From Marivirga sp. ANT-B6 (GTDB lineage: Bacteria > Bacteroidota > Bacteroidia > Cytophagales > Cyclobacteriaceae), in the NCBI GenBank assembly GCA_001683905.1, contig LXQK01000131.1, forward strand, positions 5,560 through 61,486: 55,927 nt of DNA, in the 5' to 3' direction. Shown here piece by piece: positions 122-41,855 of this stretch (position 1 is the first letter of the stretch; every line of letters starts with the position of its first letter). The notes below the pieces were generated by a model. The model searched no databases, was not told where the DNA came from, and saw only the letters and a list, made by a program, of their open reading frames with translations. The position numbers and the translations under genes are program-made.

Positions 122-895
122 ATGGAAGTAGACAAAATAGCAAAAGTAACTTTAGTAGGAGCAGGACCAGGAGCAGCAGACCTAATAACAGTAAGGGGTT
201 TAAAAATTTTACAAGAGGCGGATGTTATCCTTTATGATGCTTTAATAAGCGAAGCGCTTTTAGCGCAATTAGACGAAGCAATCCTTAAAGTGTACGTAGG
301 TAAACGCTGTGGTTTGCATTCGTTTGCCCAAGATGAAATTAACGACCTTATTGTAAAATATGCATTTGAATATGGACATGTGGTTCGATTAAAAGGAGGA
401 GATCCTTTTGTATTTGGCAGGGCGAATGAGGAGATTGAATTTGTGGAATCATTTGGCATTCCTGTAAGCGTAGTTCCAGGGATTTCAAGTTCAATAGCAG
501 TGCCGTCCAGCCAGGGAATACCCATGACCAAAAGAGGTGTAAGCAGTAGTTTTTGGGTAATGACAGCCACAAAACGGGATGGGTCATTCTCTCAAGATTT
601 GAAATATGCGGCTAGTTCTTCAACCACTATGGTTATATTAATGGGCGTGCGAAAATTAGGGGAGATAGCCCTTGAGGTAATTAAATATAGGAGTTCAATG
701 ACTCCTATTGCGGTAATTCAAAACGGCACTACAGAAAAGGAATCCTGTGTTGTAGCTACGCTAGCGACTATTCATAATTATATAGATGCTATAACGATCG
801 AAGAGCCTGGAATAATTGTAATTGGTGATGTTGTTGCGGAACATCCGTCCTTTTTTAAAGAAGAGGTACAACGTGTGCTACACGCTGGCTTCTAA
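122..895 (+). CDS. cobA: Uroporphyrinogen-III C-methyltransferase (SUMT, first step of the siroheme branch)
   Basis: 257-aa ORF with the N-terminal signature VTLVGAGPGAADLITVRGLKILQEADVILYDAL and the GGDPFVFGR motif typical of tetrapyrrole methylases. It has no CysG dehydrogenase/chelatase N-domain. Confidence 0.9.
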   Translation: MEVDKIAKVTLVGAGPGAADLITVRGLKILQEADVILYDALISEALLAQLDEAILKVYVGKRCGLHSFAQDEINDLIVKYAFEYGHVVRLKGGDPFVFGRANEEIEFVESFGIPVSVVPGISSSIAVPSSQGIPMTKRGVSSSFWVMTATKRDGSFSQDLKYAASSSTTMVILMGVRKLGEIALEVIKYRSSMTPIAVIQNGTTEKESCVVATLATIHNYIDAITIEEPGIIVIGDVVAEHPSFFKEEVQRVLHAGF

Positions 896-1099: not shown

Positions 1100-1147
1100 G
1101 ATTATGTAGTAGATTTGAAAATCATTAATATCAAAACTATCTACATT

Positions 1148-2563
1148 ATGGAAAATCTTTCTAAAAAATCGACCACGTTAAAGTTGTCCAATTTTAAGAG
1201 TATGCCTATCCGTACCTTCTGGATTACATCAATTGCTTTCTTTATCTGTTTTTTTGCCTGGTTCGGCATTGTGCCTTTTATGCCCGATGTGGTAAAAGAT
1301 CTTGGCCTTACCCCGGATCAAAAATGGAACTCTATCATTTTAGCGGTAACCGGGACGGTATTTGCCAGGTTGCTTATAGGGAAACTTTGCGATAGATACG
1401 GGCCAAGATTATGTTATACCTTTTTGCTCATATTGGGAGCTATACCTGTTATCCTAATTGGATTTGTTCAAACACCTATGCAATTTTTGTTCTGTAGATT
1501 TTTTATTGGATTTATAGGTGCCTCCTTTGTTATTACCCAATTCCACACTTCTATCATGTTCGCACCAAATATTGTAGGAACTGCGAATGCCACCTCTGCG
1601 GGTTGGGGAAACTTGGGTGGTGGAGCCAACCGTTTGGGAATGCCATTGATTGCCGCTGCCGTGGTTAGTTTTGGTGTAGCTGATGAAATTGCATGGCGTT
1701 ATTCCATGATTATTGCGGGTATTATTGCCATGTTGATGGGTGTGGTTTACTATTACTTTACCCAAGATACCCCAGAAGGTAACTTTGCACAGTTAAAAAA
1801 AGAAGGTAAAATGCCCAATTTAAAAAAAGACGAGGAATCTTTCTTGAGTGTATTGAAGGATTACCGTGTTTGGATTTTATTTATCGTATATGCTGCTTGT
1901 TTTGGTATTGAACTAACGGTATATGGCACTATGGATGATTACTTGCAGAATACCTTTGGTCTGTCACGATCCGCCGCTGGAAACTTGGTGCTTTCTTTTG
2001 CCTTGATGAACATTTTTGCTCGTACATTGGGGGGTTATTTCGGCGACCTATTTGGCAAATTAAAAGGACTTTATGGCAGGGTTATTTTTTTAACGGTAAT
2101 TCTTGCTGCAGAAGGCGCAATGCTATCCATTTTCTCTATCACTACAAGCTTTGTTCTAGGAATCATCTTCTTAATCGCATTTAGCTTAACGGTTCAAATG
2201 GCAGAAGGTGCAACATTTTCCGTGGTTCCTTTTATCAATAAAAAAGCGATCGGTTCTATTTCGGGTATTGTCGGCGCGGGTGGAAATGTTGGGGCGTTCC
2301 TGGCGGCAATGTTCTTAAAATCAAAATCTGCTGTAGCAGAGACTAGTGCTTTGGCGGCCAATTCCAATTTAGGTGAAGCGGCTATGAAAGCAGCACAGTC
2401 AGCGGCAGCTGCAAATGCCGTATCTAGTGGGTATTTCATCATTGGTGGGTTTGTCGTTATTAGCGCATTGACTACGCTGGCCATTAAATTTTCTACCGCA
2501 GATGAAAACGCGGTGCAAGCGGAAATGAAGGGTGTATTGGCAATTTCTGGATCCGGCAAATAA
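1148..2563 (+). CDS. narK: MFS nitrate/nitrite transporter (NNP family, NarK/NasA-type)
   Basis: Multi-TM ORF with the NNP signature AGWGNLGGGANRLGMP and a second G-rich motif, GIVGAGGNVGAF. The ORF-track start at 1115 is TTG, so I prefer the ATG at 1148 (MENLSKK). Confidence 0.9.
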   Translation: MENLSKKSTTLKLSNFKSMPIRTFWITSIAFFICFFAWFGIVPFMPDVVKDLGLTPDQKWNSIILAVTGTVFARLLIGKLCDRYGPRLCYTFLLILGAIPVILIGFVQTPMQFLFCRFFIGFIGASFVITQFHTSIMFAPNIVGTANATSAGWGNLGGGANRLGMPLIAAAVVSFGVADEIAWRYSMIIAGIIAMLMGVVYYYFTQDTPEGNFAQLKKEGKMPNLKKDEESFLSVLKDYRVWILFIVYAACFGIELTVYGTMDDYLQNTFGLSRSAAGNLVLSFALMNIFARTLGGYFGDLFGKLKGLYGRVIFLTVILAAEGAMLSIFSITTSFVLGIIFLIAFSLTVQMAEGATFSVVPFINKKAIGSISGIVGAGGNVGAFLAAMFLKSKSAVAETSALAANSNLGEAAMKAAQSAAAANAVSSGYFIIGGFVVISALTTLAIKFSTADENAVQAEMKGVLAISGSGK

Positions 2564-2668: not shown

Positions 2669-3952
2669 ATGAAAAAATACTTTTTAATTCTAACAATAAG
2701 CTTGTTAAGCGCGCATGCGACATTTTCACAGTTCTCGCTAGATGGTCAGTTTAGGCCAAGAGCAGAGTACAGACATGGTTACGGGAGTTTGATACCTGAT
2801 CGCGCAGATGCCGGTTTTGCAATCTCAACCCGTGTCCGTTTAAATGCCACGTATACGATTGATTCCTATCAATTTTATTTGAGTTTTCAAGATATAATGG
2901 TTTGGGGAGAGAACAGACAGCTTCTACCTGATGACCAAAATGATTCCTTTGCAGTTTTTGAAGCGTGGGCGAACATCAACCTGGGGAAAGGATGGTCCGC
3001 CAAATTGGGAAGACAGGTAATTTCCTATGACGACGAGCGTATATTTGGAGGCTTGGATTGGGCGCAGCAAGGCAGAAACCACGATGCGGGCCTTTTAAAA
3101 TACAAGATAGAAAAATTTTTATTGGATATTGGACTTGCCTTTAGTCAGGATTTTGATGACCCATCCGGGTTTCAGTCTATTGGAACCGCCTATACGACGA
3201 CTGGATTTTTTACTTATAAAACCATGCAATATCTATATGCTAAACAGCAATGGACAGATTTTTCAGGAAGTATCCTGGCATTGAACAATGGGTTTCAAAA
3301 CTTTGACACCTTGGGCGAAGCTGATGGAACCAGTAATCTACAGACGATTGGAACGCATTTGGAGTATAAAAAGGGAAGTTTTAATACAAATGCAAATGTA
3401 TTCTTGCAGACTGGTGAACGGCAAAATAGTTTGAAAGTGGGCGGTGCCTACCTATTGGGACTTGAACTGGGATATAAAGCGAACGATAAGTTGAATTTTG
3501 GTTTAGGAGCGGAAATTATAAGTGGAAATAAAGCGCGTACTACGGATAAAACCGAAGCGTTCTTCCCTCTTTATGGCACCAATCATAAATTCAACGGATT
3601 TATGGATTATTTCTACGTCGGCAACCACGCCAATTCTGTTGGATTGACTGATATTCACGCAAGTGCCAATTTTACCTTGGGTGAAAAATCAAGCTTGCTC
3701 GTCAAAGTATTAAATTTTAGCGGACAACAGGAATTAGCGAGCAGTGAAAAATTATTGGGTACGGAAGTGGATCTGGTATTTTCCAAAAGTTTCAATGGCT
3801 ATGGTCTGGCTATAGGGTATTCCCAAATGTTCGCCGCAGAGGGTATGTATGAGTTAAAGGGCATCGCTGAAGATGCAGCTGCAAGTAACCAGAATTGGGC
3901 ATGGGTGATGCTGACCATTAAGCCGAATTTTTTGAATACGGCAAAGGATTAA
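2669..3952 (+). CDS. Outer-membrane porin, alginate-export-like beta-barrel, probably an anion (nitrate/nitrite) channel
   Basis: Signal peptide MKKYFLILTISLLSAHATFSQ. The sequence has alternating amphipathic beta-strand character with many aromatic girdle residues. The family assignment comes from overall resemblance and from cluster context. Confidence 0.65.
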   Translation: MKKYFLILTISLLSAHATFSQFSLDGQFRPRAEYRHGYGSLIPDRADAGFAISTRVRLNATYTIDSYQFYLSFQDIMVWGENRQLLPDDQNDSFAVFEAWANINLGKGWSAKLGRQVISYDDERIFGGLDWAQQGRNHDAGLLKYKIEKFLLDIGLAFSQDFDDPSGFQSIGTAYTTTGFFTYKTMQYLYAKQQWTDFSGSILALNNGFQNFDTLGEADGTSNLQTIGTHLEYKKGSFNTNANVFLQTGERQNSLKVGGAYLLGLELGYKANDKLNFGLGAEIISGNKARTTDKTEAFFPLYGTNHKFNGFMDYFYVGNHANSVGLTDIHASANFTLGEKSSLLVKVLNFSGQQELASSEKLLGTEVDLVFSKSFNGYGLAIGYSQMFAAEGMYELKGIAEDAAASNQNWAWVMLTIKPNFLNTAKD

Positions 3953-4048
3953 ATTTTTTGTAAAGATGCTTCGATGGGGTGCCACCCGTACTACATAAGT
4001 ATGGCAGCGCCTTTTTCGTTTTTAAAATTATATGTAATTTAGCACAGT

Positions 4049-4054
4049 TACGTA
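4049..4054. promoter_or_regulatory. Single TACGTA box (TTACGTATAA) 15 bp upstream of the response-regulator ATG
   Basis: Read directly. It has the same core as the boxes upstream of cobA, narK and nasA. Confidence 0.35.
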
Positions 4055-4068
4055 TAATTACCTATATT

Positions 4069-4740
4069 ATGAGTGAAATCACTAAAATTGTTTTGGCAGA
4101 TGACCATGCTTTGGTCAGGGATGGAATAAGGGCTTTATTAGAATCCGAAAGGGATTTGGAAGTCATTGGAGAGGTTTCCAATGGCGAGGAAGCTATCGTG
4201 ATGGTTGAAAAGCTGCATCCAGATCTTCTAATAATTGATATTAGGATGCCGGTCATGAACGGTATTGAAGCTGTTGAAGCACTTCACAATAACAATTCTA
4301 ATGTAAAAGTCATCATACTTTCCATGCATGATTCAGAAGAGTATATCTTAAAATCAATTAGCGCAGGAGCAAACGGTTATTTGTTGAAGGATACGGATAA
4401 GACTGAGTTTATAAAAGCGATACATATAGTACGTGATGGTGGCAAATACTTCAGTGGGGATATTAGCAATGTACTTGTAAACAATATTTTAGGCTTGAAG
4501 TTGCCGCTAGTCAACCACGAGAAACAGAGTACACCCAGTGAAAATATTTTTGATTTAACCAATAAAGAACTGCAAATATTAGAATTGGTTCTTTCCGGAT
4601 TGACCAATCAACAGATTTCAGAAAAATTAAAGAACAGTAAGCGTACCATAGAAACCCACCGGTTCAACCTCATGCGTAAAATGGATGTTAAAAATTTAAT
4701 TGACCTTTCTAAAAAAGCGCAAAAACATCAATTGGTTTAG
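4069..4740 (+). CDS. NarL/FixJ (LuxR-type HTH) two-component response regulator with no cognate kinase in the window
   Basis: Receiver domain features: IVLADDHALVRDG and LLIIDIRMPVMNG (phospho-acceptor Asp). C-terminal LuxR HTH: LTNKELQILELVLSGLTNQQISEKLKNSKRTIETHR. The start is taken at ATG 4069 (MSEITKIV) rather than the upstream alternative start at 3979. Confidence 0.9.
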   Translation: MSEITKIVLADDHALVRDGIRALLESERDLEVIGEVSNGEEAIVMVEKLHPDLLIIDIRMPVMNGIEAVEALHNNNSNVKVIILSMHDSEEYILKSISAGANGYLLKDTDKTEFIKAIHIVRDGGKYFSGDISNVLVNNILGLKLPLVNHEKQSTPSENIFDLTNKELQILELVLSGLTNQQISEKLKNSKRTIETHRFNLMRKMDVKNLIDLSKKAQKHQLV

Positions 4741-4839: not shown

Positions 4840-4863
4840 AATACGTATTAATACGTATTTTTG
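4840..4863. promoter_or_regulatory. Tandem ATACGTAT boxes (4841-4848, 4851-4858) overlapping a TAnnTTTG -7-like box (4856-4863) upstream of nasA
   Basis: Read directly: AATACGTATTAATACGTATTTTTG. The Bacteroidota -7 consensus is TAnnTTTG, and the nasA ATG is at 4909. Confidence 0.5.
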
Positions 4864-4908
4864 TATTTTGCAGTATTGAAATTAAAGTTGCTCGTCAGCA
4901 CAAGTAAA

Positions 4909-7900
4909 ATGCAAAATAAAAAAACACATAAAACAATTTGTTCCTATTGTGGCGTGGGCTGTGGTATGCTGGTAAATGTGGATGCAAAAGGAACAATATC
5001 AGTTGATGGTAATCCAGATTATCCTTCCAATAAGGGTATGTTATGTACCAAGGGCCGTAATTTAAATTATGTTGCCCAAGATACCTCGGATCGCATATTG
5101 TATCCAGAAATGCGATGGAGCCGAAATCACCCTTTACAACGTGTTAGTTGGGATACGGCCTATGAACGTGCTGCGGCAGTATTTAAAAGTATCATCGCCA
5201 AACACGGTCCGGATAGTGTAGCATTTTATGTGTCCGGTCAATGCTTAACGGAGGAATATTACCTGGTCAACAAACTGACCAAAGGTTTTATAGGCACCAA
5301 TAACATAGACACTAATTCACGATTATGTATGAGTTCTGCGGTCGCGGGCTATAAAAAAACTTTGGGTGAGGACTCCGTTCCTATATCCTATGAAGATATA
5401 GAGTTGGCGGACTGTTTTTTGATTGCGGGGGCAAACCCTGCCTGGTGTCATCCTATACTTTACCGCAGATTGGAAAAGCATAAGGAACAAAATCCTCAAG
5501 TAAAAATAATCGTTGTAGATCCCCGTAAAACCCAAACCTGTGCAGGGGCGGATTTACACTTGCAGATTTTGCCGGGTACCGATGTTATTCTTTTCAACGC
5601 CATTGCCCGTTGGTTAATCGAAAAAAGAAAAATAGACACTTCTTTTATTAAAAAACATACGACAAATTACAACGCGTGTAAGGAAACGGCCTTTTCATTA
5701 TCAATTAGGGAAGCTGCAAAAAAATGTGGCATTGAGGTCAGTGCTATTCGTAAGGCGGCAGAATTTATAGGAAATGCCAAAAAGTTTATAAGCATGTGGA
5801 CCATGGGGCTCAATCAAAGTGTGATCGGGGTCGCAAAAAATGTGTCGCTCATAAATCTTTCATTGTTGACTGGCCAGATCGGTAAACCTGGCTGTGGTCC
5901 TTTTTCATTAACCGGACAGCCCAATGCCATGGGTGGTCGTGAAGTGGGGGGGATGGCAAATTTGTTGGCGGCCCATAAAGATTTAGGAAACCCAGCACAT
6001 AGAAAGGAAGTATCGGATTTTTGGGGAGGTGGAGAGATTAAGGCGGAACCAGGTTACACTGCTACGGAAATGTTTGATGCGTTAGAAAATGGAAAGCTAA
6101 AGGCTATCTGGATTATTTGTACCAATCCGGCCGTGAGTATGCCCAACGTCCATAAGGTTGAAAAAGCATTGAAGAACGCCAAGTTTGTAGTGGTACAGGA
6201 CATCTCGCATAATTCTGAAACTACAAAGTTTGCAGATTTGTTATTGCCCGCCGCGGGATGGTTAGAAAAAGAGGGCACCATGACCAACTCAGAAAGGCGT
6301 ATCAGTCATTTGCCCAAAGTAATTGACCCTCCAGGGGAAGCCATGCCAGATGCGGAAATATTATGGCGTTTTGCCCAGGCTATGGGCTATCATGGTTTTG
6401 ACTATAAAAATGCCAGTGAGGTATATGATGAGCATTGTTTGCTTACCAAAGGCACGGAGATAGATATCTCTGGACTTTCCTATGACCGACTTATCAGTGA
6501 GGGTAGTTTTCAATGGCCCGTTCCCCACAATACCCATATGGGAACTCCGCGACTATTTACGGACTTTCAATTTTTTACCGACGATAAAAAAGCGCATTTT
6601 AATGCGCCATCCACCCTATACAATAAGTCTGAAGAAACTGATTACGAGTATTCGTTGATCTTAAATACGGGCAGGGTCAGGGACCAATGGCATACCCGCA
6701 CCAAAACTGGCAAGGTAAAGCGTTTGCTTACCCATATTCCAGAGCCTTATTTGGAAATGAACAGGGTCGATGCCTATTTGAGAAATCTTAAGGAGGGTGA
6801 TATTGCAGTCGTTAAAAGTAGAAGGGGACAGGTACAGGTAAAAGTGCAGGTTAACTTTGATATCCGTAAATCTGTTGTGTTTCTACCCATGCATTGGGGC
6901 AAGGTATTGAATAATGATTTTGGAAGGGCCAATAATCTCACCAGCGAATTGGTAGATCCCGTGTCAAAAGAACCTGATTTTAAATATTGTGCTGTTGAGG
7001 TAACCAAATTTGTTAAGCAAAAACAGAAAATCATCATTATTGGTGCCGGGGCGGCAGCGTATCGATTTATTCAATCGTATCGAGAAAAGAATAGAAGGGA
7101 CCCGCTACATGTTTTTTCCAAGGAAGAAAATCCATTTTATAATCGAGTACTCCTACCTGACTATGTAAGTGATGAACTTTCATGGGATGCGCTGGAAAAG
7201 TTGAAAAAGGGGGAGTTGAACAAGCTGTCGGTAGTATTGCATTCCGGTATTGGGATTGATAAGATTGATGCCCATAAAAAGACGGTAACCGATTCAAACG
7301 GAACGGAACATTCGTATGATCTTTTGATTATGGCCACGGGTAGTAGGGCTTATGTGCCTAGTGATGTACAGATACAATTACCAGGTCGTTTTACGATGCG
7401 GGAAAAGGGAGATGCGGATAAGTTAAAGAGCTATTTAGCAGAAACAGGCCTTCCTGCAAGGGAACAAAATGTGGTCATTGTTGGCGGTGGATTATTGGGC
7501 TTGGAACTTGCAGCCTCACTGAAAAAAATAGATGTGAATATTAGCATTATTCAACGGGCACCAAAATTAATGGAACGACAACTGGATAGCGTTGCAAGCC
7601 GTTTGTTGGCCGAGGATGTTTTGGAACGGGGCATAAATCTTTACTTTGACAACGAGGTTAGTACCGTTTTTGAAGATAGGACGCGAAAACATACCCTTTT
7701 GATTAACCTAAAAACCGGGCGAACTATTCAATGTAACGCCATAGTCTATGCTATCGGTACCAGACCCAACATAGAATTGGCGAAACAGACCAATTTGAAT
7801 ACCCATAGAGGGGTGGTGGTCAATTCATATTTACAATCCAGCGACCCAACTATTTTTGCGTTGGGAGAAATTGCGGAATATAAAAATGCATTGTTCGGTA

Positions 7901-8439
7901 TTACTTCCGCAGCGGAACAACAGGCAGATATTGCAGCAAATTACATCCTTGGTGATTTTAGTAGTATCTATAGCGGTTCTGTGTTGATGAACATTCTAAA
8001 GTTTGAAAACCTGGACCTTTGTAGTATCGGGATGGTCAATGCGCCCATTGGAGATTCGTCATATGAGGAAATTATCCTGATGGATGTCAATAAACGTTTT
8101 TACAAAAAATGTATCGTTAAGGATGACACCTTAAAAGGCGCCATTTTAATGGGCGATAAAAATGAGTTTGCAGAATTTAAAAGATTGATCGAAGAAGAGA
8201 TAGAACTCTCTGAAAAAAGAAACGAACTCTTACGTGGGGCTTCGACCTCTGTGCCACTAAAAGGGAAAATAGTTTGCTCGTGTAGTCAGGTGGGAGAAGG
8301 TAATATTTTGGACGCCATAAATGGGGGCTGCACCAATTTCAACAAACTCTGCTCAGAAACAGGTGCGGGATTGGGCTGTGGAAGCTGCAAGCCTGAAATT
8401 AAGGAACTACTAAAAAACCATCTGGTTTTGGCCAATTAA
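4909..8439 (+). CDS. nasA: Assimilatory nitrate reductase catalytic subunit (molybdopterin) fused to a NirB-N-terminal-like FAD/NAD(P)H reductase with a BFD-type [2Fe-2S] domain
   Basis: N-terminal CSYCGVGCGM...LCTKG 4Fe-4S motif, followed by a molybdopterin-oxidoreductase body up to about nt 7020. Then come IIIIGAGAAAYRF (FAD), VVIVGGGLLGLELA (NAD) and a C-terminal CSCSQVGEGNILDAI...GCGSCKPE BFD-like 2Fe-2S domain. The ATG at 4909 (MQNKKTHK) is preferred over the TTG at 4861. Confidence 0.9.
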   Translation: MQNKKTHKTICSYCGVGCGMLVNVDAKGTISVDGNPDYPSNKGMLCTKGRNLNYVAQDTSDRILYPEMRWSRNHPLQRVSWDTAYERAAAVFKSIIAKHGPDSVAFYVSGQCLTEEYYLVNKLTKGFIGTNNIDTNSRLCMSSAVAGYKKTLGEDSVPISYEDIELADCFLIAGANPAWCHPILYRRLEKHKEQNPQVKIIVVDPRKTQTCAGADLHLQILPGTDVILFNAIARWLIEKRKIDTSFIKKHTTNYNACKETAFSLSIREAAKKCGIEVSAIRKAAEFIGNAKKFISMWTMGLNQSVIGVAKNVSLINLSLLTGQIGKPGCGPFSLTGQPNAMGGREVGGMANLLAAHKDLGNPAHRKEVSDFWGGGEIKAEPGYTATEMFDALENGKLKAIWIICTNPAVSMPNVHKVEKALKNAKFVVVQDISHNSETTKFADLLLPAAGWLEKEGTMTNSERRISHLPKVIDPPGEAMPDAEILWRFAQAMGYHGFDYKNASEVYDEHCLLTKGTEIDISGLSYDRLISEGSFQWPVPHNTHMGTPRLFTDFQFFTDDKKAHFNAPSTLYNKSEETDYEYSLILNTGRVRDQWHTRTKTGKVKRLLTHIPEPYLEMNRVDAYLRNLKEGDIAVVKSRRGQVQVKVQVNFDIRKSVVFLPMHWGKVLNNDFGRANNLTSELVDPVSKEPDFKYCAVEVTKFVKQKQKIIIIGAGAAAYRFIQSYREKNRRDPLHVFSKEENPFYNRVLLPDYVSDELSWDALEKLKKGELNKLSVVLHSGIGIDKIDAHKKTVTDSNGTEHSYDLLIMATGSRAYVPSDVQIQLPGRFTMREKGDADKLKSYLAETGLPAREQNVVIVGGGLLGLELAASLKKIDVNISIIQRAPKLMERQLDSVASRLLAEDVLERGINLYFDNEVSTVFEDRTRKHTLLINLKTGRTIQCNAIVYAIGTRPNIELAKQTNLNTHRGVVVNSYLQSSDPTIFALGEIAEYKNALFGITSAAEQQADIAANYILGDFSSIYSGSVLMNILKFENLDLCSIGMVNAPIGDSSYEEIILMDVNKRFYKKCIVKDDTLKGAILMGDKNEFAEFKRLIEEEIELSEKRNELLRGASTSVPLKGKIVCSCSQVGEGNILDAINGGCTNFNKLCSETGAGLGCGSCKPEIKELLKNHLVLAN

Positions 8440-8449
8440 AAGAATAGGT

Positions 8450-9886
8450 ATGAATGATGACCTTCATAGAATATTAATTAAAGGCGGTGTTACGTCGCCT
8501 GGGGAACTTAAGGATATAATCACCATGCTAGAGGCTGCGGGTTTAAGCACAGTATTTTTTGGCTCCAGACAGGATATTTTATTTCCTCTAAAAGATGCCA
8601 AGGAAGAACAGCTGGAAGGTATCTCCAAATTGAATACGGATATTATTGGTAACCGTTCCTATCAAAATATTGTAAGCTCCTACGTTTCAGCAGATATTTT
8701 TGATATGACGTATTGGTTGAAAGGATCTACCTATCTCTATATTTTGGAAGGATTCGATTTTTCACCAAAGCTAAAAATCAATATTACGGACCCTAAACAA
8801 CGTTTGGTTCCTATTTTTAATGGCAATCTTAATTTTATTGCTTCTGACAGTGAGGATTATTGGTATCTGAATATAAAGCTGCCGCATTGGAAAACTTCGG
8901 CCTTTTATCCGGTACTTATTTATAGTTGGGATATCAATATCGTTTCAAAACGTATCGAAGAAATCCACGAAGATATTCAGGATGTGGAGGAACTTTTTTT
9001 TGTGATGAACAAGCACTTGGAGACTAACAATAAGACCATGGAAAAGGAATTGAAGATACCTTTTCAAACCTTTCCCTACTACGAAGGAATGAACAGATTG
9101 GGAACGGACTCCTATTGGCTAGGACTTTATTGGCGAAACAATAAATACGACCTTCGTTTTTTAAAGGATTTTTGTGGATTTTGTTTGGACAATAGTATTG
9201 GTAAAATATGTGTTACCCCTTGGAAATCTTTTATCGTCAAAGGAATCAAAACATCCAGCAGACCAGAATTGGAACGCTTCTTAGGGAAACGAGGTATAAA
9301 TGTTCGGCATTCGCAATTGGAAATGAACTGGCACGTTCCTGTGGATGATGGCGAGGCATTGGAGCTTAAGAAATTCTTGGTCAGTAGTTTTGACCAAAAT
9401 GATATTAGCACCTATGGTCTTACCTTTGGTATCAGTAATGAAATGGGCAACCGATCACATTTTGCTTCGGTGGTTATTGAAAAAAATAGTTTGCCAACGC
9501 TGGTAAAGGATTTTGATGTTCGCCCGTCGTACAACGTCCTCTATTTTGAGAACTTTGACCCCAACACCCAGAACTATACTACCTATGCTCAAGATATCGA
9601 TAAGATTGAATTACCTGGGTTGTTGATGGAGTTGAGTAAAATGTATTTTGATCAATTGGGAAGGGCAACAGATTCAGAAAAAATTACCACAAAAGAGGTA
9701 GTTGACACAAAACACCGTGTCTATCAATGTCAAGATTGCTTTACGGTTTATGATGAGGTATTGGGGGATGGAGTGGCGGGTATTCATCCCGGCACAAAAT
9801 TCGGTGTCCTGCCAGACACTTATTCTTGCCCAGTTTGCGATGGCCCTAAAAGCAACTTTTCAGAAACCTTTTTGCTTATCGAATAA
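8450..9886 (+). CDS. Nitrite/sulfite-reductase-fold protein (two ferredoxin-like half domains) lacking the siroheme/[4Fe-4S] cysteine tetrad, with a C-terminal rubredoxin domain
   Basis: The N-terminus ILIKGGVTSPGELKDIITMLEAAGLSTVFFGSRQDILFPL fits the NIR_SIR ferredoxin-like half-domain pattern. A second copy is YWLGLYWRNNKYDLRFLKDFCGFCLDNSIGKICVTPWKSFIVKGI. The C-terminus YQCQDC...YSCPVCDGPK is a rubredoxin Cx2C...CPxCG motif. There are only 7 Cys in total, 4 of them in the rubredoxin. The gene starts 10 nt after the nasA stop. Confidence 0.7.
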   Translation: MNDDLHRILIKGGVTSPGELKDIITMLEAAGLSTVFFGSRQDILFPLKDAKEEQLEGISKLNTDIIGNRSYQNIVSSYVSADIFDMTYWLKGSTYLYILEGFDFSPKLKINITDPKQRLVPIFNGNLNFIASDSEDYWYLNIKLPHWKTSAFYPVLIYSWDINIVSKRIEEIHEDIQDVEELFFVMNKHLETNNKTMEKELKIPFQTFPYYEGMNRLGTDSYWLGLYWRNNKYDLRFLKDFCGFCLDNSIGKICVTPWKSFIVKGIKTSSRPELERFLGKRGINVRHSQLEMNWHVPVDDGEALELKKFLVSSFDQNDISTYGLTFGISNEMGNRSHFASVVIEKNSLPTLVKDFDVRPSYNVLYFENFDPNTQNYTTYAQDIDKIELPGLLMELSKMYFDQLGRATDSEKITTKEVVDTKHRVYQCQDCFTVYDEVLGDGVAGIHPGTKFGVLPDTYSCPVCDGPKSNFSETFLLIE

Positions 9887-10113: not shown

Positions 10114-13100
10114 CTACTGCGCCCCTGCATGGCAGGTACAACCTGGTGTAGAAAAGCTGCCTGTACTTTCATGCCATGGAAAAGCCTGGCTTGTTTTATT
10201 CTTTTCCCAATAAAAACTTCCTCGTTCTTTAGGCCTGTTGCCAATTTCATGCATTGTCCCGGCGTCATATAGCCGTCCATTCACCATGGTGTAGATGATG
10301 CTTTCCGAATTTCTAATGTCGTCGAGCGGATTATTCTCCAGGACGAGGAGATCGGCCAGTTTTCCTACTTCCAGCGAGCCAATTTCTGCACCCATGCCAA
10401 TGTAATTCGCACCATTGATGGTAGCAGCCTGCAGTGCTTCCATATTGGTCATGCCACCCATTTGTAATAGCCATAGCTCCCAATGGGCACCAATGCCCTG
10501 CATCTGCCCGTGGGCACCCAGGTTCACCTTAACGCCTACATCGGCAAGCGCTTTGGCGGTTTGAGAGACCAGAACAGGGCCCTGCTGATATTCTTCTTCA
10601 GGCACCATGGTTCTATGGCGGGATCTTGCATCTACGATATGCCGCGGCGTAAAATTCAGTAGCCTTTCGTTTTCCCAAACATTGGTTTTTTCGTAGAAAT
10701 AATATTCTCCGTTTATTCCCCCGTAATTGACAATCAGCGTAGGTGTGTAGCCAGTATTGCTGTTGCCCCACAGGGTAAAGATATCTTTATAAACCGGGGC
10801 AACGGGAATATTATGCTCGATTCCTGTGTGCCCGTCTACAACCATACTCATATTATGAAAAAAAGTGCTGCCACCTTCCGGTACTACATTCATGCCAAGC
10901 TCTTTGGCAGCTTGCATGATCTGTTGCCGCTGCTCTCGGCGCGGCTGGTTATAGCTTTTTACGGAAGTCGCACCAAAAGCTTTCGTTCGTCGTAGGGCAG
11001 ATCGGGCATCTTCTAGGCTATTGACTTCGGCTTTAAAATCTCCTTCGGCACCGTATAGGATGATTCCTGTAGAAAATAACCTTGGCCCAACACTTTGTCC
11101 TGCTTTGATAAGTTCTGAAATGCCAAATACAGTTTCGCTCAAAGCAGAGGGGTCATGCGCGGTGGTTACACCAAAAGCGAGGTTGGCATATGCCGGCCAA
11201 TGTTTTTGTGGCGTAAGACCATATCGGAAAGCACCAATATGCGCATGAGCATCTACGATGCCTGGCATAATCGTTTTCCCCGCCACATCATAGACTTTAG
11301 CGCCTTTGGGGACTTCTACCTCAGCGGCATTACCGAGGGCAACAATCTTGTTTTCGCGGATTACAATCGTTCCATTTTCAATTACCTGACCGCCATTCAT
11401 TGTTATAATCCGGGCATTGGTAAAGGCAATAACACCTTGGGGAACATCTGCTTTCATCTCGAGGCCAATCGTTATCCCTGTTTCAGTAACGGGAGCAACA
11501 GAATCCGGTGAATTGGGGAGAAAGGTAAATTTCTCAGAAACCTGGTTGGTATAATATGTATCCCCTAATGTCCAGTTGATTTGCTGGCTATTATTCGACC
11601 AATGAAGGTTCATACCAGCATCTTTGGTGATTTGCGCTACTGGAACGGTTTTAGTCTTTCCATCCAGATCGATAGTCTTGCCGGTAGTGACCAACGGCGC
11701 TATATATCCCTGGTGTAGCTGGGTAAACGCTATCCATCTGTTATCGGGGCTAGGCACCAGCCGGTTTGCATTTTTGGACTGAACATGTACTCGCTCGTCT
11801 TTTCCATTCAGATCGACACTCTTCAGTTTTTTGGTAAGGTCACCAAAAAACATCCCGCCTGTCTGAAAAAAGACCCTATCGTCATCTTTACTAAATACAG
11901 GAAATTCACCTTCATCAACTACTTTCTTTACACTTTCGCCAGAAGCACTCATCGTGTAAATGCCTGGTTCCTTGGCAAAGGTCCTTCCCTGGTCGGTATT
12001 GCCACTCTCGCGCGTAAATACGATCATCCGGCCGTCTTGCGATGAGGAAGGATTTCGATAAATCCCTTTCTCCTTAGTGAGGGATACGGGATTTCCTCCT
12101 GATAAAGCTACCTTCTTAATTGCCCCCATGCTGGCATCACTCCACGTTACAAAGATGATATCTTTTCCATTATTTGTAAAAGCCGGCTCAAACTCAAATT
12201 CCACGCCCTGGGTAAGTCGTTGAGGTTTTCCGTTCGGAAGGCTCTTCTTATACAAGTATCCTACAGCATTAAAAACCAGGGTTTTCCCATCGGGCGATGT
12301 TACCGCATGACGAATCACTTTCGGATTAAATGTCTCCGAAAATACCTGGTGCTTTGCCCGGTGGGTCTCAGCGACTTGGATGGTATTATTTACTTCAAAA
12401 GGTATATCCTGCGCCTTTAGTGTGTTTATATTGATCCGCTTAATCTTTCCAGCGACCCATATGACGATTTCCTCGCTGCCAGGCAGCCAGGAAAATCCCG
12501 GATAAACACCAAAAATAGCCCAGGCCTCCTGTTGATCTTTGCTTAGCTGATCGAATACAGGCCATTCTTCGCCCGTCTTCAGGTCATGAATATAAAGGAC
12601 GGATTTGGTCCTGACGCGTTTGACAAAAGCAAGCTTATTCCCATCGCGAGACACCTGCGGGCGGGCCGCGCCACCCGGTCCACCTGTAATCGTCTCGGTC
12701 GCCCCGGTTTTGAATTCATACCGCTTGATTACATAGATCTGCTTGTTAGGATCTTTATTATACTGAAACATGCCACCTGGGTACATATCTTCGCTATAAT
12801 AGAGGTAGCGCCCATCAGGAGAAACTGACGGTTCATTCACATCCTGTTGATCGTTTTTTCTTTCCGTAAGCTGAAGGCCTTCGCTGCCGGCTATGTGATA
12901 TTGCCACATTTCCCCTGCGCCAAGAGAGCGCCCGGAAGTAAAATGCTTTCTTGCAATAATGGAATTCCCATCTATCGTCCAAACTGCATTGTTCAAAAGT
13001 CTGAATGTTTCCTTGGTTAGCTGCTTTGGGTCGGAACCATCGATATTCATGATCCAGATATTATCACCACCTCCTGCATCGCTGGTGAAGGCAATTTTTT

Positions 13101-13419
13101 GGCCATCTGGACTGAACCTTGGCTGCACCTCGTAAGCCATGCCACTGCGCAGCGCTGTTGCTTTTCCCCCACCCATTGGCATGGTATAGATATCACCCAA
13201 GAGATCAAAGACGATTATTTTTCCATCAGGGCTGACGTCCAGGTTCATCCAGGTTCCTTCATCAGTGTTTAAAGGTACATCCTTGATGTTCCAGCTTTCA
13301 TCATAGGGGTGATTTACATCCCACTTTTTATCCTTCTTCTCTTTAGGTTCGTTGTCCTGCGAGAATGATAGGATTGAAGATATCAAAAGCAATACAATCA
13401 TCGAAAATTTATAGCGCAT
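10114..13419 (-). CDS. Secreted PD40/TolB-like beta-propeller protein fused to a C-terminal metal-dependent amidohydrolase domain
   Basis: Signal peptide MRYKFSMIVLLLISSILSFSQ. Repeated PD40-type motifs include SPDGKIIVF, SPDGQKIAFTS, SPDGRYLYYS, SRDGNKLAFV, SPDGKTLVF, SQDGRMIVFT and SPDNRWIAFT. Amidohydrolase signatures are PGIVDAHAHIG and VDGHTGIEH. Confidence 0.85.
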   Translation of the reverse strand: MRYKFSMIVLLLISSILSFSQDNEPKEKKDKKWDVNHPYDESWNIKDVPLNTDEGTWMNLDVSPDGKIIVFDLLGDIYTMPMGGGKATALRSGMAYEVQPRFSPDGQKIAFTSDAGGGDNIWIMNIDGSDPKQLTKETFRLLNNAVWTIDGNSIIARKHFTSGRSLGAGEMWQYHIAGSEGLQLTERKNDQQDVNEPSVSPDGRYLYYSEDMYPGGMFQYNKDPNKQIYVIKRYEFKTGATETITGGPGGAARPQVSRDGNKLAFVKRVRTKSVLYIHDLKTGEEWPVFDQLSKDQQEAWAIFGVYPGFSWLPGSEEIVIWVAGKIKRININTLKAQDIPFEVNNTIQVAETHRAKHQVFSETFNPKVIRHAVTSPDGKTLVFNAVGYLYKKSLPNGKPQRLTQGVEFEFEPAFTNNGKDIIFVTWSDASMGAIKKVALSGGNPVSLTKEKGIYRNPSSSQDGRMIVFTRESGNTDQGRTFAKEPGIYTMSASGESVKKVVDEGEFPVFSKDDDRVFFQTGGMFFGDLTKKLKSVDLNGKDERVHVQSKNANRLVPSPDNRWIAFTQLHQGYIAPLVTTGKTIDLDGKTKTVPVAQITKDAGMNLHWSNNSQQINWTLGDTYYTNQVSEKFTFLPNSPDSVAPVTETGITIGLEMKADVPQGVIAFTNARIITMNGGQVIENGTIVIRENKIVALGNAAEVEVPKGAKVYDVAGKTIMPGIVDAHAHIGAFRYGLTPQKHWPAYANLAFGVTTAHDPSALSETVFGISELIKAGQSVGPRLFSTGIILYGAEGDFKAEVNSLEDARSALRRTKAFGATSVKSYNQPRREQRQQIMQAAKELGMNVVPEGGSTFFHNMSMVVDGHTGIEHNIPVAPVYKDIFTLWGNSNTGYTPTLIVNYGGINGEYYFYEKTNVWENERLLNFTPRHIVDARSRHRTMVPEEEYQQGPVLVSQTAKALADVGVKVNLGAHGQMQGIGAHWELWLLQMGGMTNMEALQAATINGANYIGMGAEIGSLEVGKLADLLVLENNPLDDIRNSESIIYTMVNGRLYDAGTMHEIGNRPKERGSFYWEKNKTSQAFPWHESTGSFSTPGCTCHAGAQ

Positions 13420-38688: not shown

Positions 38689-39936
38689 TTAACGTAAAAG
38701 CCCTACGGCTACGGTTGAGTTCGTGTGCTCATCGATAAGTATGAAAGCGGCATTTGCTCTATTTTCGGCGTAGGAATCATAGAAAATTTCTTTGGCTGTT
38801 TTCAAAGTAACATCAGCAATTTCATTTAGCTTCAGCTGATTGACCACCGGTTCGGATTCCAAAGAGATGACATCGATCAGGTTGTGAATGCCTGTGACTC
38901 TGGCTCGCGAAACATTGACCCCATGTTGTAGAAGGAATATGCCGCCAGAGGCCATGGGCTCATGCGACATCCAGCAGATTGTCGCATTCATCTGCCTGGT
39001 TTGCTGCGGAAGTTGATGCACCGGCACGATCATATCGCCGCGGCTAAGGTCTACGTCATCTTCCAATATAATATTGACTGATTCACTGGCCTGAGCGGCC
39101 TCCATTTCCCGGCCAAATTTTTCAATTTTTGAAATGGTAGTTTCCTGCCTCCCTGGCAACACGACAACCTTTTCACCTTTTCGGAAGACGCCACTGACCA
39201 CTTTCCCAGCATAAGCACGGTAGTCGTGAAAAGCTTCGGACTTTGGCCTGATCACATACTGTACAGGAAACCTGGAGACCTCCTCTGAAAGGGATTCGTG
39301 CAGGGTGATTTTTTCCAACATTTGCAATAGCGCACTGCCCTTATACCAGGGCATTGAGGAGGACTTCTCAACAATATTTTCGCCCAAAAGAGACGATATA
39401 GGCACAAATTCTATTTGCTGCCCTTCAAATTTTACCTTCTCGGCAAAAGCCAAAAACTGACTCTTGATATCCTCGAAATGTTGCTGCGAATAGCCGACAA
39501 GATCCATTTTATTGATGCAGATCATCACCTGCGGGATTCGCAGCAGACATGAAATATAAAAGTGCCGGAAAGTTTGCTCTACAACACCTTTCCTGGCATC
39601 GATGAGGATCAGCGATACGTTGGCGTTAGATGCACCTGTGACCATGTTGCGAGTATATTCGAAATGGCCGGGGGTGTCGGCAATGATAAATTTTCGTTGT
39701 GGCGTGGAAAAGTAGATATGTGCGACATCGATGGTGATGCCCTGCTCGCGTTCGGCAATCAGCCCATCGGTAAGCAATGAAAGATCGACATAACCGAGTC
39801 CCTTTTTTTTGCTGGCAGCCATAATGGCCTCGAGCTTGTCGTCGGTGATCGAGTTTGTGTCGAAAAGCAACCTGCCAATCAATGTACTTTTGCCATCGTC
39901 GACGCTACCTGCGGTAGCAATATTTAATACTTCCAT
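38689..39936 (-). CDS. cysN: Sulfate adenylyltransferase subunit 1 (GTPase), without an APS-kinase domain
   Basis: G1 motif ATAGSVDDGKST, then DTPGH and NKMD. At 415 aa it has no C-terminal CysC module. Confidence 0.9.
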   Translation of the reverse strand: MEVLNIATAGSVDDGKSTLIGRLLFDTNSITDDKLEAIMAASKKKGLGYVDLSLLTDGLIAEREQGITIDVAHIYFSTPQRKFIIADTPGHFEYTRNMVTGASNANVSLILIDARKGVVEQTFRHFYISCLLRIPQVMICINKMDLVGYSQQHFEDIKSQFLAFAEKVKFEGQQIEFVPISSLLGENIVEKSSSMPWYKGSALLQMLEKITLHESLSEEVSRFPVQYVIRPKSEAFHDYRAYAGKVVSGVFRKGEKVVVLPGRQETTISKIEKFGREMEAAQASESVNIILEDDVDLSRGDMIVPVHQLPQQTRQMNATICWMSHEPMASGGIFLLQHGVNVSRARVTGIHNLIDVISLESEPVVNQLKLNEIADVTLKTAKEIFYDSYAENRANAAFILIDEHTNSTVAVGLLR

Positions 39937-39939
39937 GGG

Positions 39940-40845
39940 CTAAAAATATCCTGATTGTTTTCGTTTTTCCATAGCGGCTTCTGAGCGTTTATCGTCTATT
40001 CTCGCGCCTCTTTCCGAGACAGTAGCCAATAGGATTTCCTGGATGATATGATCTATTTGATTGGCTGAAGACTCTACCGCGGCAGTACAAGTCATGTCGC
40101 CTACAGTTCTAAAACGAACCTGCCTTTTTTCCACAACTTCATTGTCGGTAACATTTACAAAAGAAGAGTATGGTAAAATCTGGCCGTCGCGCACGAAGGT
40201 GTCTCTTTCATGGGCATAATAAATGGATGGAATGGCTAGCTCATCTTCCTTGATATAATTCCATACGTCCAGCTCTGTCCAGTTGCTGATAGGAAATACC
40301 CGCACATTCTCGCCAAGGCTGATGCGGCCATTCAACATATCAAAAAGTTCTGGCCTTTGTTTTTTGGCATCCCATTGTCCAAAATCATTGCGCACAGAAA
40401 ATATTCTCTCCTTAGCTCTGGCCTTTTCTTCATCCCTCCTGGCACCACCAATACATGCATCAAATTTAAACTCTTCAATAGCGTCTAGTAAGGTGACGGT
40501 TTGCAGCACATTTCTGCTGGCATATTTACCTGTTTCTTCTACTGCCTTTTTCTGATCGATGCTGTCTTGCACATAACGTACAATCAGTTCAAGGTCAAAT
40601 TTTTCTACCAGTTCATCCCTAAACCGGATGGTTTCGTCGAAGTTGTGGCCTGTATCGATATGCAACAAAGGAAACGGGATTTTAGCTGGATAAAATGCCT
40701 TTATCGCCAAACGCACAAGCGTGATGGAATCTTTACCTCCCGAAAATAATAAAACCGGCTTTTCGAATTGTGCCGCTACTTCACGGAAGATATAAATGGC
40801 TTCATCTTCCAGTTCTCTGGGAAAGAGGGATGAATTTTCAACCAT
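39940..40845 (-). CDS. cysD: Sulfate adenylyltransferase subunit 2
   Basis: PAPS-reductase/ATP-PPase fold with LLFSGGKDS and LLHIDTGHNF. The start is taken at MVENSS (40845), 7 nt after the cysH stop. The longer ORF-track form would overlap cysH by 83 nt. Confidence 0.85.
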   Translation of the reverse strand: MVENSSLFPRELEDEAIYIFREVAAQFEKPVLLFSGGKDSITLVRLAIKAFYPAKIPFPLLHIDTGHNFDETIRFRDELVEKFDLELIVRYVQDSIDQKKAVEETGKYASRNVLQTVTLLDAIEEFKFDACIGGARRDEEKARAKERIFSVRNDFGQWDAKKQRPELFDMLNGRISLGENVRVFPISNWTELDVWNYIKEDELAIPSIYYAHERDTFVRDGQILPYSSFVNVTDNEVVEKRQVRFRTVGDMTCTAAVESSANQIDHIIQEILLATVSERGARIDDKRSEAAMEKRKQSGYF

Positions 40846-40852
40846 AAGTTCT

Positions 40853-41569
40853 TTATTTATTAAAATAGTTTGCATGTAGTCCGCATTCTTTTTGTGTTTG
40901 TTCCCACCACCACCTACCGGCTCTGGCTTCTTCACCAGGCGCTATTGCCCTGGTACAAGGTGCACACCCAATGCTGATGAAACCGCTTTGGTGTAATTTA
41001 TTGCTAGGAATATGGTATAATGCCAAATAGGCCAGCATGTCTTCGTATGACCAACCGATGATCGGATTAAATTTAATTATTTGGAACGCCTCGTCCCACT
41101 CAAGCAAAGAAATATTGCTTCGGTTATCACTTTGTGCTGCGCGCAACCCCGTAATCCAGACACTGGCACCGGCCAAAGCTCGCTTTAATGGCTGTACTTT
41201 CCGGATGTTACAGCACAACTTCCGGTTTTCTACGCTCTCATAGAAGCTATTGATGCCATGGCTATCGACAAAATCCTCTATTTGTGTGGCATCAGGATAA
41301 TAAGCTTTTATTTTGGCCTGATATAGTTGTTCCGTTTCTTCCCACAGCGCATAGGTCTCATGGAATAATCTTCCGGTATCGAGAGAAAAAACCTGTACAG
41401 GCAATTGATTCTTGAAGATTGCATGTGCAATTACCTGGTCCTCCTGACCAAGAGCGGACGAAAATACAGCCCTTCCTGCAAACCGCTGACCCATCAAGAG
41501 CAGCGATGCTTCCAGACTTAAGTCCTGAATCTCTTCAAGAAGTGACGGTATCTGGTCTTTGATATTCAT
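40853..41569 (-). CDS. cysH: Assimilatory adenylyl-sulfate (APS)/PAPS reductase, Fe-S-type (CC...CxxC class)
   Basis: It contains KLCCNIRKV, GCAPCTR and C-terminal KECGLH. The CC plus CxxC motifs are characteristic of [4Fe-4S] APS reductases. Confidence 0.85.
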   Translation of the reverse strand: MNIKDQIPSLLEEIQDLSLEASLLLMGQRFAGRAVFSSALGQEDQVIAHAIFKNQLPVQVFSLDTGRLFHETYALWEETEQLYQAKIKAYYPDATQIEDFVDSHGINSFYESVENRKLCCNIRKVQPLKRALAGASVWITGLRAAQSDNRSNISLLEWDEAFQIIKFNPIIGWSYEDMLAYLALYHIPSNKLHQSGFISIGCAPCTRAIAPGEEARAGRWWWEQTQKECGLHANYFNK

Positions 41570-41855
41570 TGATTGGCTTTTTTACCGTAAATTTTTCCCA
41601 CGCTCGCTCATGGAAATAATAGAGCAGGATCTTACTAAATACCTCTATAGAACCAATAGAAATGGCCATTTTAAGCTCTCCTGTTATAAAATATGATATT
41701 ACAATCGTATCGATTGTTCCCAACACCCTCCACGAAATAGCTTTCCCTAAACTCTTAAATTTAGAATCACCTCCTTGACTTTTAGAGGAGGATAACTTTT
41801 TCAAATATGGATCCAGAAACATACTTTTGAAATCTTGAAAGGTAAAAGTACACAT
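41535..41855 (-). CDS. DUF2061-family small membrane protein
   Basis: SWRVLGTIDTIVISYFITGE...IGSIEVFSKILLYYFHERAWE matches the DUF2061 pattern. An alternative ATG lies at 41822. The 3' end overlaps the cysH start by 35 nt. Confidence 0.65.
   Translation of the reverse strand: MCTFTFQDFKSMFLDPYLKKLSSSKSQGGDSKFKSLGKAISWRVLGTIDTIVISYFITGELKMAISIGSIEVFSKILLYYFHERAWEKFTVKKPINEYQRPDTVTS

Follow-up and report, generated by a model that had tools for sequence, protein, structure and literature searches.

A predicted sulfite/nitrite reductase fold with a rubredoxin tail and without cluster cysteines, encoded directly behind the nitrate reductase fusion of Bacteroidota

The stretch of DNA analysed here, called the window below, comprises 55,927 nucleotides of contig LXQK01000131.1 (positions 5,560 to 61,486; assembly GCA_001683905.1) from Marivirga sp. 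ANT-B6, a member of the Cytophagales, and the subject of this analysis is a gene at positions 8450 to 9886 on its forward strand, with an ATG start and a stop codon at 9884-9886, which encodes a protein of 478 amino acids (aa). A first-pass annotation, made from the sequence of the window alone, had described this protein as having the fold of the nitrite and sulfite reductases, from which all four cysteine ligands of the siroheme-[4Fe-4S] center have been lost and to which a C-terminal rubredoxin has been added. The open reading frame is present as described, and all three peptides that had been quoted for it are found in its translation. The gap of 10 nt to the preceding nitrate reductase gene, also pointed out there, is likewise real, with the latter gene ending at 8439.

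The preceding gene (4861..8439, forward strand) encodes an assimilatory nitrate reductase in the form of a fusion of NasA with flavin adenine dinucleotide (FAD) and [2Fe-2S] modules. Its NasA part, to which Mo-bisPGD and a [4Fe-4S] cluster are assigned as cofactors, is composed of Molybdop_Fe4S4, Molybdopterin, and Molydop_binding domains and is matched by the NasC and NasA models with E values of 1e-159 and 1e-147, respectively. The C-terminal module consists of an NADH/FAD reductase of the type found at the N-terminus of NirB, together with a BFD [2Fe-2S] domain (TIGR02374 positions 1-469, E = 7e-93; NorW, E = 3.5e-48). The cysteine motifs of the fusion (C27/30/34/62 and C1139/1141/1173/1176) are intact. 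It has to be noted that the TTG start at 4861 is probably wrong, as the gene calls on identical DNA give a protein of 1176 aa beginning at M17 (4909), which is likely the true start.

The 478-aa protein itself is divided into a large body, a linker, and a small C-terminal domain, all of them, like the gene, on the forward strand. The body opens with a first ferredoxin-like half domain (8462..8635, approximately aa 5-62; motif KGGVTSPGEL...GSRQ), for which the evidence is the match of PF03460 in relatives, hhalign, and the structural model, in which a beta-alpha-beta-beta-alpha pattern is predicted by AlphaFold. It is followed by a first region equivalent to NIR_SIR (8636..9085, approximately aa 63-212), which contains the highly conserved pocket segment PKLKINITDPKQ...NLNFIAS, by a second ferredoxin-like half domain (9086..9289, approximately aa 213-280; PF03460 at aa 238-278), which houses Cys 242, 245, and 254, and by a second NIR_SIR-equivalent region (9290..9664, approximately aa 281-405), which is free of cysteine and has the motif RHSxLE(L/M)NW at the position of the CX5C motif. 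A flexible linker (9665..9706, approximately aa 406-419), variable in both length and sequence across the family, then leads to the rubredoxin domain (9707..9883, aa 420-478), whose predicted Fe(Cys)4 ligands are C427, C430, C460, and C463.

Relatives of the protein were gathered by running the body (aa 1-415) exhaustively against cluster representatives. This returned 352 sequences, of which 131 had E ≤ 1e-30; their lengths are nearly always 465-500 aa, and identities reach down to approximately 25%. A profile of 88 distant members was subsequently used to draw a diverse set from the Cytophagales, Sphingobacteriales, Chitinophagaceae, and Balneolales. The family members are entered in the databases as "rubredoxin" or "rubredoxin domain-containing protein", and the family was not found described in the literature searched, which covered full-text searches and targeted paper look-ups. 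The statement in the first-pass annotation that no characterized member with this architecture is known agrees with what the databases and the literature returned.

With an alignment of 142 sequences, the AlphaFold model of the 478-aa protein reached a pLDDT of 87.6 and a pTM of 0.79, as compared to a pLDDT of only 43.6 with 36 close relatives; it contains a confidently predicted rubredoxin and a disordered linker at aa 408-419, where the pLDDT falls below 50. In a Foldseek search against the PDB, the modeled body matched over its full length the NirA of M. tuberculosis (1zj8; E = 7.4e-17, TM score 0.64), followed by the E. coli sulfite reductase hemoprotein, SiRHP or CysI (6c3m, 1aop, and others; E approximately 1e-15), and by the sulfite reductase of maize and the nitrite reductases of spinach and tobacco (E approximately 1e-13 to 1e-14). 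These matches extend over 447-512 aligned columns with 11-14% identity and TM scores of approximately 0.6. Homology of the body had to be shown by structure, because PDB searches by sequence, whether with the whole protein, the body alone, or two family profiles, returned rubredoxins alone and no chain of a nitrite or sulfite reductase.

Sequence models add to this picture in different degrees. PF03460 falls just below its cutoff in the 478-aa protein (aa 238-278; E = 1.4e-4, 21.9 bits against a cutoff of 24), and it is matched by 81 of the 88 diverse members, with a best E value of 2e-16, on either the N-terminal or the second half domain, as in the relative P0139, where it covers the N-terminal one (aa 6-62). 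The two ferredoxin-like half domains that had been read from the sequence are therefore borne out, mainly by structure, with a sequence signal that is borderline in this protein and clear across the family. PF01077 has no match in the 478-aa protein or in any of the 88 diverse members. NCBIfam gives rubredoxin models alone for the 478-aa protein and no NirA, NirB, or CysI model; no Pfam or NCBIfam model spans its body; and hhalign detected no internal repeat between the N- and C-terminal halves. Taken together, the model and the structural matches place aa 1-405 in the two-repeat fold of the NirA/CysI-like sulfite and nitrite reductases, and the protein is, on the predicted structure, a member of the SNiRR superfamily.

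The C-terminal domain is the part for which sequence alone gives a strong answer, PF00301 being matched at aa 425-470 with E = 2.8e-15 and 56.5 bits against a curated cutoff of 23, so that the three Pfam models which the first-pass annotation had proposed as a check (PF03460, PF01077, and PF00301) come out as a match below cutoff, no match, and a strong match, respectively. Rubredoxins of the PDB are found at E values of approximately 1e-10 with 47-51% sequence identity, and by structure with a root-mean-square deviation of 0.7-0.8 Å. The two CxxC knuckles (C427xxC430...C460xxC463) are present, and their four cysteines are 99% conserved in an alignment of 103 diverse full-length members, which also underlies the conservation figures given below; the proposed rubredoxin is thus upheld by the domain model, the PDB matches, and the cysteines. 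In some divergent relatives the loops between the two knuckles are shortened, and judged by their sequences these domains could be Zn ribbons. Three family representatives (P0130, P0198, and P0216) end without a rubredoxin, which may reflect gene calls that were cut short or true rubredoxin-less variants.

The four rubredoxin ligands account for most of the seven cysteines of the 478-aa protein. The remaining three (242, 245, and 254) all lie within the second ferredoxin-like half domain, as had been stated in the first-pass annotation, and there is none between aa 255 and 426. The canonical CX5C...CX3C ligand set, reported as absent from this protein, is absent likewise from the region after the second half domain in all of the 103 diverse members. 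C242, C245, and C254 are conserved in only 54%, 80%, and 24% of the members, and with this they were rejected as a candidate for a new cluster site. The coupled siroheme-[4Fe-4S] motif is described in PMC3448663 as the feature by which this class of enzymes is defined above all others. Both the cysteine ligands and PF01077, the defining features of functional siroheme reductases, fail in the 478-aa protein, and it should therefore not carry the annotation of a nitrite or sulfite reductase.

Residues of the former active site were traced by hhalign of the family profile to E. coli CysI as a single-sequence template (the reference sequence being 100% identical to PDB 6c3m chain A), which is colinear over 396 columns, and to a NirB profile of 116 sequences. 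In this low-probability mapping, R7 is paired with CysI R83, R40-Q41 with R117-Q118, Q72 with R153, K107/K109 with K215/K217, N128 with N236, and M292/V298 with the ligands C434/C440, and the stretch with C479/C483 falls on a Cys-free, variable segment at approximately aa 326-335. In the separate alignment with the NirB profile, PKLKINITD is paired with HKFKGGVSGC at E of approximately 1e-3, which supports the earlier placement of this peptide at the site of the shared NirA/NirB/CysI/CobG motif. Among the equivalents of the four anion-binding residues of SiRHP, assigned by the same low-confidence mapping, that of R83 is Arg or Lys in 88 of 103 members and that of K217 is Lys or Arg in 88/103, that of K215 is basic in 50/103, and that of R153 is Pro, Gln, or His. 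In sulfite reductases, the fourth Arg/Lys is the one that is universally kept (PMC3448663).

The conservation of the pocket goes well beyond these basic positions. R40 is present in 98 members out of 103, W294 in 96, H287 in 94, and E291 in 83, while Q41 (98%), N73 (92%), S77 (96%), D114 (97%), Q117 (99%), and N128 (96%) have been retained among members that are 25-50% identical to one another; N111, D114, Q117, and N128 together lie in the range of 86-99%, R229 and K307 are also among the very strongly conserved residues lining the pocket, and across the family there is hardly any variation in the lining segment LKINIxDPxQ...NLNFIAS. Such conservation among proteins so far apart argues, as far as sequences can tell, that the former active-site pocket still binds some ligand.

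The genomic setting of the gene was surveyed in a GTDB scan with one genome per species, in which at least 589 stretches encode a relative, and synteny was counted at the 80 best loci and five others, 84 of which had upstream DNA. At all 84 of them, the gene is immediately preceded by the molybdenum and FAD parts of the NasA fusion. The median spacing between the stop codon of NasA and the ATG of the gene is 10 nt, the value found in the window, and the mode is -4 nt, corresponding to the ATGA overlap seen at 13 loci, a spacing that is typical of translational coupling. This arrangement extends over the Flavobacteriaceae, the Saprospiraceae, Echinicola (Cytophagales), Pedobacter (Sphingobacteriales), and Fodinibius (Balneolales), as well as locus L087, and among the matches listed all the named family hits belong to the Bacteroidota or the Balneolales. 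The nitrate reductase fusion is hence the invariant partner of the gene across the loci examined, and the 478-aa protein represents a widespread, uncharacterized architecture with a clear genomic partner. Other neighbors are less constant: NirB or NirD is encoded within 10 kb at only about one third of the synteny loci; moaD/moaE come next after the gene in Pedobacter and Fodinibius, where moaA and mobA lie at a greater distance; and on a contig from the Chitinophagaceae (L086) the family member is preceded by a gene for the nitrate-reductase-associated family PF09655 and followed by mobA.

Small genes of the Rdx family (PF10262) were also seen near the gene and near genes for biosynthesis of the molybdenum cofactor (Moco) at three unrelated loci (L086, L003, and L004). 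The positions listed for these Rdx-family and PF09655 observations are 1-456 and 2079-2977 in L086, 14563-14850 in L003, and 14138-14416 in L004.

The first-pass annotation had further remarked that the window shows no canonical nitrite reductase, and had considered that the 478-aa protein might be a non-canonical nitrite-handling enzyme in its place. The former is literally true; it is, however, an artifact of the window edge. A second contig (L001) encodes an identical protein and is 100% identical to the window along 19,886 nt, position 1 of the window corresponding to position 1552 of L001, and to the left of that point, on the reverse strand at L001 1..1549, it carries the first 516 codons of an 838-aa nirB gene, divergent from cobA, so that the canonical nirB start codon lies 2 nt outside the window, whose edge cuts through the cluster for nitrate/nitrite assimilation. 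The database record of this 838-aa NirB lists Pyr_redox_2, Fer2_BFD, NIR_SIR_ferr, and NIR_SIR domains, a separate scan of the sequence confirms its FAD/BFD part, and its closest relatives (92% identical) carry the ligand motif KSCVGSTWC...GCIRECA.

The same co-occurrence is met elsewhere. Full-length NirB is encoded on the same contigs as family members, or in the same species, in at least eight named genomes (Zobellia sp. 1_MG-2023, Maribacter sp. TH_r10, Aggregatimonas sangjinii, Flaviramulus basaltis, Cellulophaga sp. E16_2, C. omnivescoria, C. baltica, and Aureibaculum flavum A20, the last of these with P0476) and on two JGI contigs, and in Fodinibius nirB and nirD share one operon with the nasA-partner pair. 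With NirB adjoining the window, with NirB and NirD in the Fodinibius operon, and with NirB in the same species, the proposal of an enzyme that fills a gap falls away; the 478-aa protein was rejected as a replacement for the nitrite reductase, a role that we regard as unlikely. What stands of the earlier interpretation is its architecture, with an accessory, a sensor, and an electron-transfer adaptor kept as candidate roles, and what fails is its argument from a missing nitrite reductase. The uroporphyrinogen-III C-methyltransferase gene cobA of the siroheme branch, which had been counted to the cluster, is indeed found there (122..895, forward strand; TIGR01469, E = 5.7e-83), and its presence is explained by NirB. 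Two further candidates were set aside. One is that the 478-aa protein is a split-off C-terminal half of a NirB paralogue, for which the order of the genes is suggestive; the single SNiRR repeat of NirB, however, aligns only with the N-terminal repeat of the body, which has the two-repeat fold, and the idea is kept as an analogy only. The other, a novel siroheme-synthesis enzyme (chelatase or dehydrogenase) tied to cobA, was rejected, many loci having the NasA-partner pair with neither cobA nor nirB nearby.

Comparison with characterized systems helps to frame what the protein may do. With spinach and tobacco NirA (2akj and 3b0g), the M. tuberculosis NirA/SirA (1zj8), and E. coli CysI (1aop, 6c3m), the predicted body shares the overall fold and the two half domains in the same order, and it probably has basic residues at the equivalents of SiRHP R83, R117, and K217. 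It differs from them, at 11-14% identity, in lacking PF01077, an equivalent of R153, and the four cysteines by which the [4Fe-4S] cluster is ligated and linked to siroheme; in the regions after each half domain, which are shorter than in CysI (150 and 125 aa vs approximately 208 and 155 aa); in the added C-terminal rubredoxin; and in its genomic partner, which is a nitrate reductase instead of a pathway step that reduces nitrite or sulfite. The likeness to NirB is one of order, in that the NasA fusion contains the NirB-type FAD/NADH and BFD half and the next gene encodes the SNiRR body, so that the two genes taken together reproduce the NirB domain order. NirB itself, however, has one SNiRR repeat with its CX5C...CX3C ligands as compared to two repeats and no ligand cysteine in the 478-aa protein, the hhalign match to the NirB profile is weak (E = 1e-3) and covers the N-terminal repeat only, and a genuine NirB is separately encoded in the same genomes. 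NirD, the partner of NirB with a Rieske fold that lacks its cluster, is a precedent for an accessory subunit without a cluster.

A further group for comparison are redox systems with a fused rubredoxin or dependent on one, namely the flavorubredoxin NorV with NorW, and rubredoxin with its reductase (AlkG/AlkT; P. aeruginosa, 2v3b). Like NorV, the 478-aa protein has a C-terminal rubredoxin fused to a body (with matches to 4d02 and 2ms3), and the NAD(P)H:FAD reductase next to it, on NasA, belongs to the rubredoxin-reductase/NorW family; unlike NorV, its body is not a flavodiiron protein, and its presumed reductase is fused to a molybdoenzyme. With NarJ, FdhE, and the cyanobacterial PF09655 family "Nitr_red_assoc", the gene has in common its location in an operon with a molybdoenzyme and near Moco biosynthesis genes, and FdhE carries Fe(Cys)4 sites as well (PMC10609526). 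However, no kinship in sequence or fold connects it with these factors, and the 478-aa protein is much larger, with a body whose fold is derived from an enzyme.

The model that we favor, tentatively and with a confidence that stops a little short of even, assigns the 478-aa protein to the single-polypeptide NADH:nitrate reductase of the Bacteroidota type (the NasA-FAD-[2Fe-2S] fusion), as an accessory subunit that is dedicated to this enzyme and co-translated with it, and does not regard it as the nitrite reductase. The body without a cluster, the tethered rubredoxin, the coupled pairing with NasA, and the separate NirB(D) are the reasons for which a stoichiometric accessory of the nitrate reductase is proposed. 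In this model, NirBD would serve as the nitrite reductase of the pathway. The rubredoxin would act, on its tether, as a mobile one-electron carrier that receives its electrons from the C-terminal NADH/FAD/[2Fe-2S] module of the NasA fusion, a role suggested by the flexible linker together with the family of this module, which also includes NorW, the rubredoxin reductases, and the NirB N-terminal half. The body would have kept a ligand pocket from the former siroheme/anion site, with basic residues at the putative R83, R117, and K217 equivalents, and this pocket may dock onto the nitrate reductase or work beside it, for example by holding nitrite or another anionic ligand, and may keep the enzyme reduced and active.

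Several points weigh against the accessory-subunit model. The NasA fusion already has a full chain from NADH through FAD, [2Fe-2S], and [4Fe-4S] to molybdenum, so that an additional electron carrier is not obviously needed. The tight synteny would suit a maturation factor equally well. Moreover, the residue mapping onto SiRHP and NirB, from which the basic positions of the pocket are taken, comes from hhalign alignments of low probability (2-21%, E of approximately 1e-3 to 3e-2) and is backed by colinearity and the structural match only.

An alternative, which we consider unlikely, is that the 478-aa protein is a [4Fe-4S]-free reductase of nitrite, nitric oxide (NO), or hydroxylamine, in which siroheme, another tetrapyrrole, or a metal would occupy the old site and electrons would arrive one at a time through the tethered rubredoxin from the NADH/FAD module of NasA; its role would then be to scavenge reactive by-products of nitrate reduction at the enzyme, or to serve as a second nitrite reductase. 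The residues lining the pocket are far too conserved for a dead scaffold, and the basic ones at the R83 and K217 equivalents have been kept. With NasA, FAD, and BFD domains succeeded by the SNiRR body, the arrangement imitates the order in which the domains follow one another in NirB. N-oxide reductases fed by a rubredoxin do exist in NorV/NorW, the rubredoxin of NorV being matched by this one, and the exclusive pairing with a FAD-fused NasA suggests that the rubredoxin uses that reductase. Co-expression of genes for NO detoxification with the assimilatory nitrate reductase, reported for Bradyrhizobium (PMC4724949), also speaks in its favor. This alternative is weakened by the loss of all four cluster cysteines, including the one that provides the bridging axial thiolate, in a class defined by this very motif (PMC3448663); by the position equivalent to C483, at which no His, Cys, Met, or Tyr is conserved; by the R153 equivalent, which is not basic, and the K215 equivalent, which is basic in 49% of the members only; by the lack of a PF01077 signal; and by the canonical NirB(D), encoded beside the gene or together with it, which leaves no gap in the pathway to be filled. 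The stronger form of the proposal, in which NasA and the 478-aa protein would form a two-site machine that reduces nitrate and then processes nitrite, NO, or hydroxylamine, making the protein a new class of siroheme-family enzyme without a coupled [4Fe-4S] cluster, is in our estimate more doubtful still.

Just as unlikely as the [4Fe-4S]-free reductase, in our view, is a role in the maturation or activation of the nitrate reductase, in which the protein would work as an analogue of NarJ, NapF, or FdhE; its pocket would hold an anionic cofactor such as molybdenum bis(pyranopterin guanine dinucleotide) or its precursor, or a segment of apo-NasA, and its rubredoxin would keep the cofactor or the enzyme reduced during insertion or reductive activation. 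NasA-type enzymes need a maturation protein, which in Paracoccus is NarJ, and FdhE is a factor of the iron-rubredoxin type for the related formate dehydrogenases (PMC10609526). The location of the gene between nasA and moaD/moaE in Pedobacter and Fodinibius, with moaA/mobA further along, and next to mobA and a PF09655 gene in the Chitinophagaceae would fit such a factor, as would the electron chain that NasA already owns and the tight operon coupling, which resembles that of narJ. On the other hand, the protein has no likeness in sequence or fold to NarJ/TorD, NapD, FdhD, or FdhE, Pfam and NCBIfam giving PF03460 and PF00301 only and Foldseek SNiRR enzymes and rubredoxins only; the very high conservation of many polar residues in the pocket, together with the 1:1 translational coupling, would be expected of an enzyme or a stoichiometric subunit more than of a chaperone; and the gene accompanies the FAD-fused NasA exclusively, a restriction for which a factor serving purely as a Moco chaperone would have no need.

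A regulatory pseudoenzyme, sensing nitrite in the relic pocket and the redox state through its rubredoxin so as to throttle the nitrate reductase or to signal to a NarL-type regulator, is improbable, given that the protein has no DNA-binding, kinase, or other output domain, that the response regulator is absent from many loci with the NasA-partner pair (e.g. L003, L004, L005, and L087), and that the coupling to NasA suggests stoichiometric and not regulatory amounts, even if remnants of the anion site are kept, catalytically dead homologues frequently turn into sensors, and a NarL-type response regulator without an adjacent kinase is encoded at 3979-4740.

The accessory-subunit model would matter mostly for how nitrate assimilation is described in the Bacteroidota, where the process is ecologically important, in marine Flavobacteriaceae as well as in soil Sphingobacteriales and Cytophagales, and where usually only nasA and nirBD are annotated. 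The nitrate reductase of these lineages is the NasA-FAD-[2Fe-2S] fusion, which at the loci examined is accompanied by a conserved second protein labeled merely "rubredoxin". Should this protein be a required subunit or activator, current models and the heterologous expression of the Bacteroidota nitrate reductase would be incomplete without it; should the relic site instead perform chemistry without a [4Fe-4S] cluster, the supposedly defining feature of the sulfite/nitrite reductase class would be broken. Zobellia, Pedobacter, Echinicola, and Cellulophaga all carry the gene, which makes it a genetically tractable target.

The remaining genes of the nitrate cluster lie on the forward strand between cobA and nasA and comprise a nitrate/nitrite transporter of the NarK family within the major facilitator superfamily (1115..2563; TIGR00886, E = 1.3e-89), an outer-membrane beta-barrel related to Alginate_exp (2669..3952; PF13372, E = 4e-10), and the NarL/LuxR-type response regulator (3979..4740; PF00072 and PF00196, with matches to NarL-type NCBIfam models), which sits between the barrel gene and nasA and beside which no histidine kinase gene is visible. 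The Alginate_exp-like family recurs beside narK/nasA in Zobellia (L002), Pedobacter (L004), and Fodinibius (L005) and at L087, and the barrel of the window may be a nitrate/nitrite porin. A scan for sigma-70 promoters and terminators gave the same counts as shuffled sequence. The right-hand end of the cluster is marked by a convergent gene on the reverse strand (10114-13419), unrelated to it, for a protein of 1101 aa with PD40/Tricorn-like beta-propeller repeats and a C-terminal amidohydrolase.

Farther into the window, a small gene of 74 aa with a zf-CDGSH iron-sulfur domain was called on the identical contig L001 (16134-16358, reverse strand); its length is below the threshold of the open reading frame list made for the window. 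A block for sulfate assimilation is found on the reverse strand at 38689-42566, with a CysN-like GTPase (38689-39936), CysD- and CysH-like PAPS_reduct genes (39940-41569), and an Rrf2 regulator (42144-42566), and the scan of large open reading frames in the window did not turn up a gene for a sulfite reductase. The Moco biosynthesis genes moaA (50365-51381) and moeA (51439-52617) are located approximately 40 kb from nasA, together with a gene for a TauE/SafE exporter (52961-53698). Adjoining them on the reverse strand is a gene for a bacterial-like (truncated) globin (49720-50103), which could be relevant to the handling of NO.

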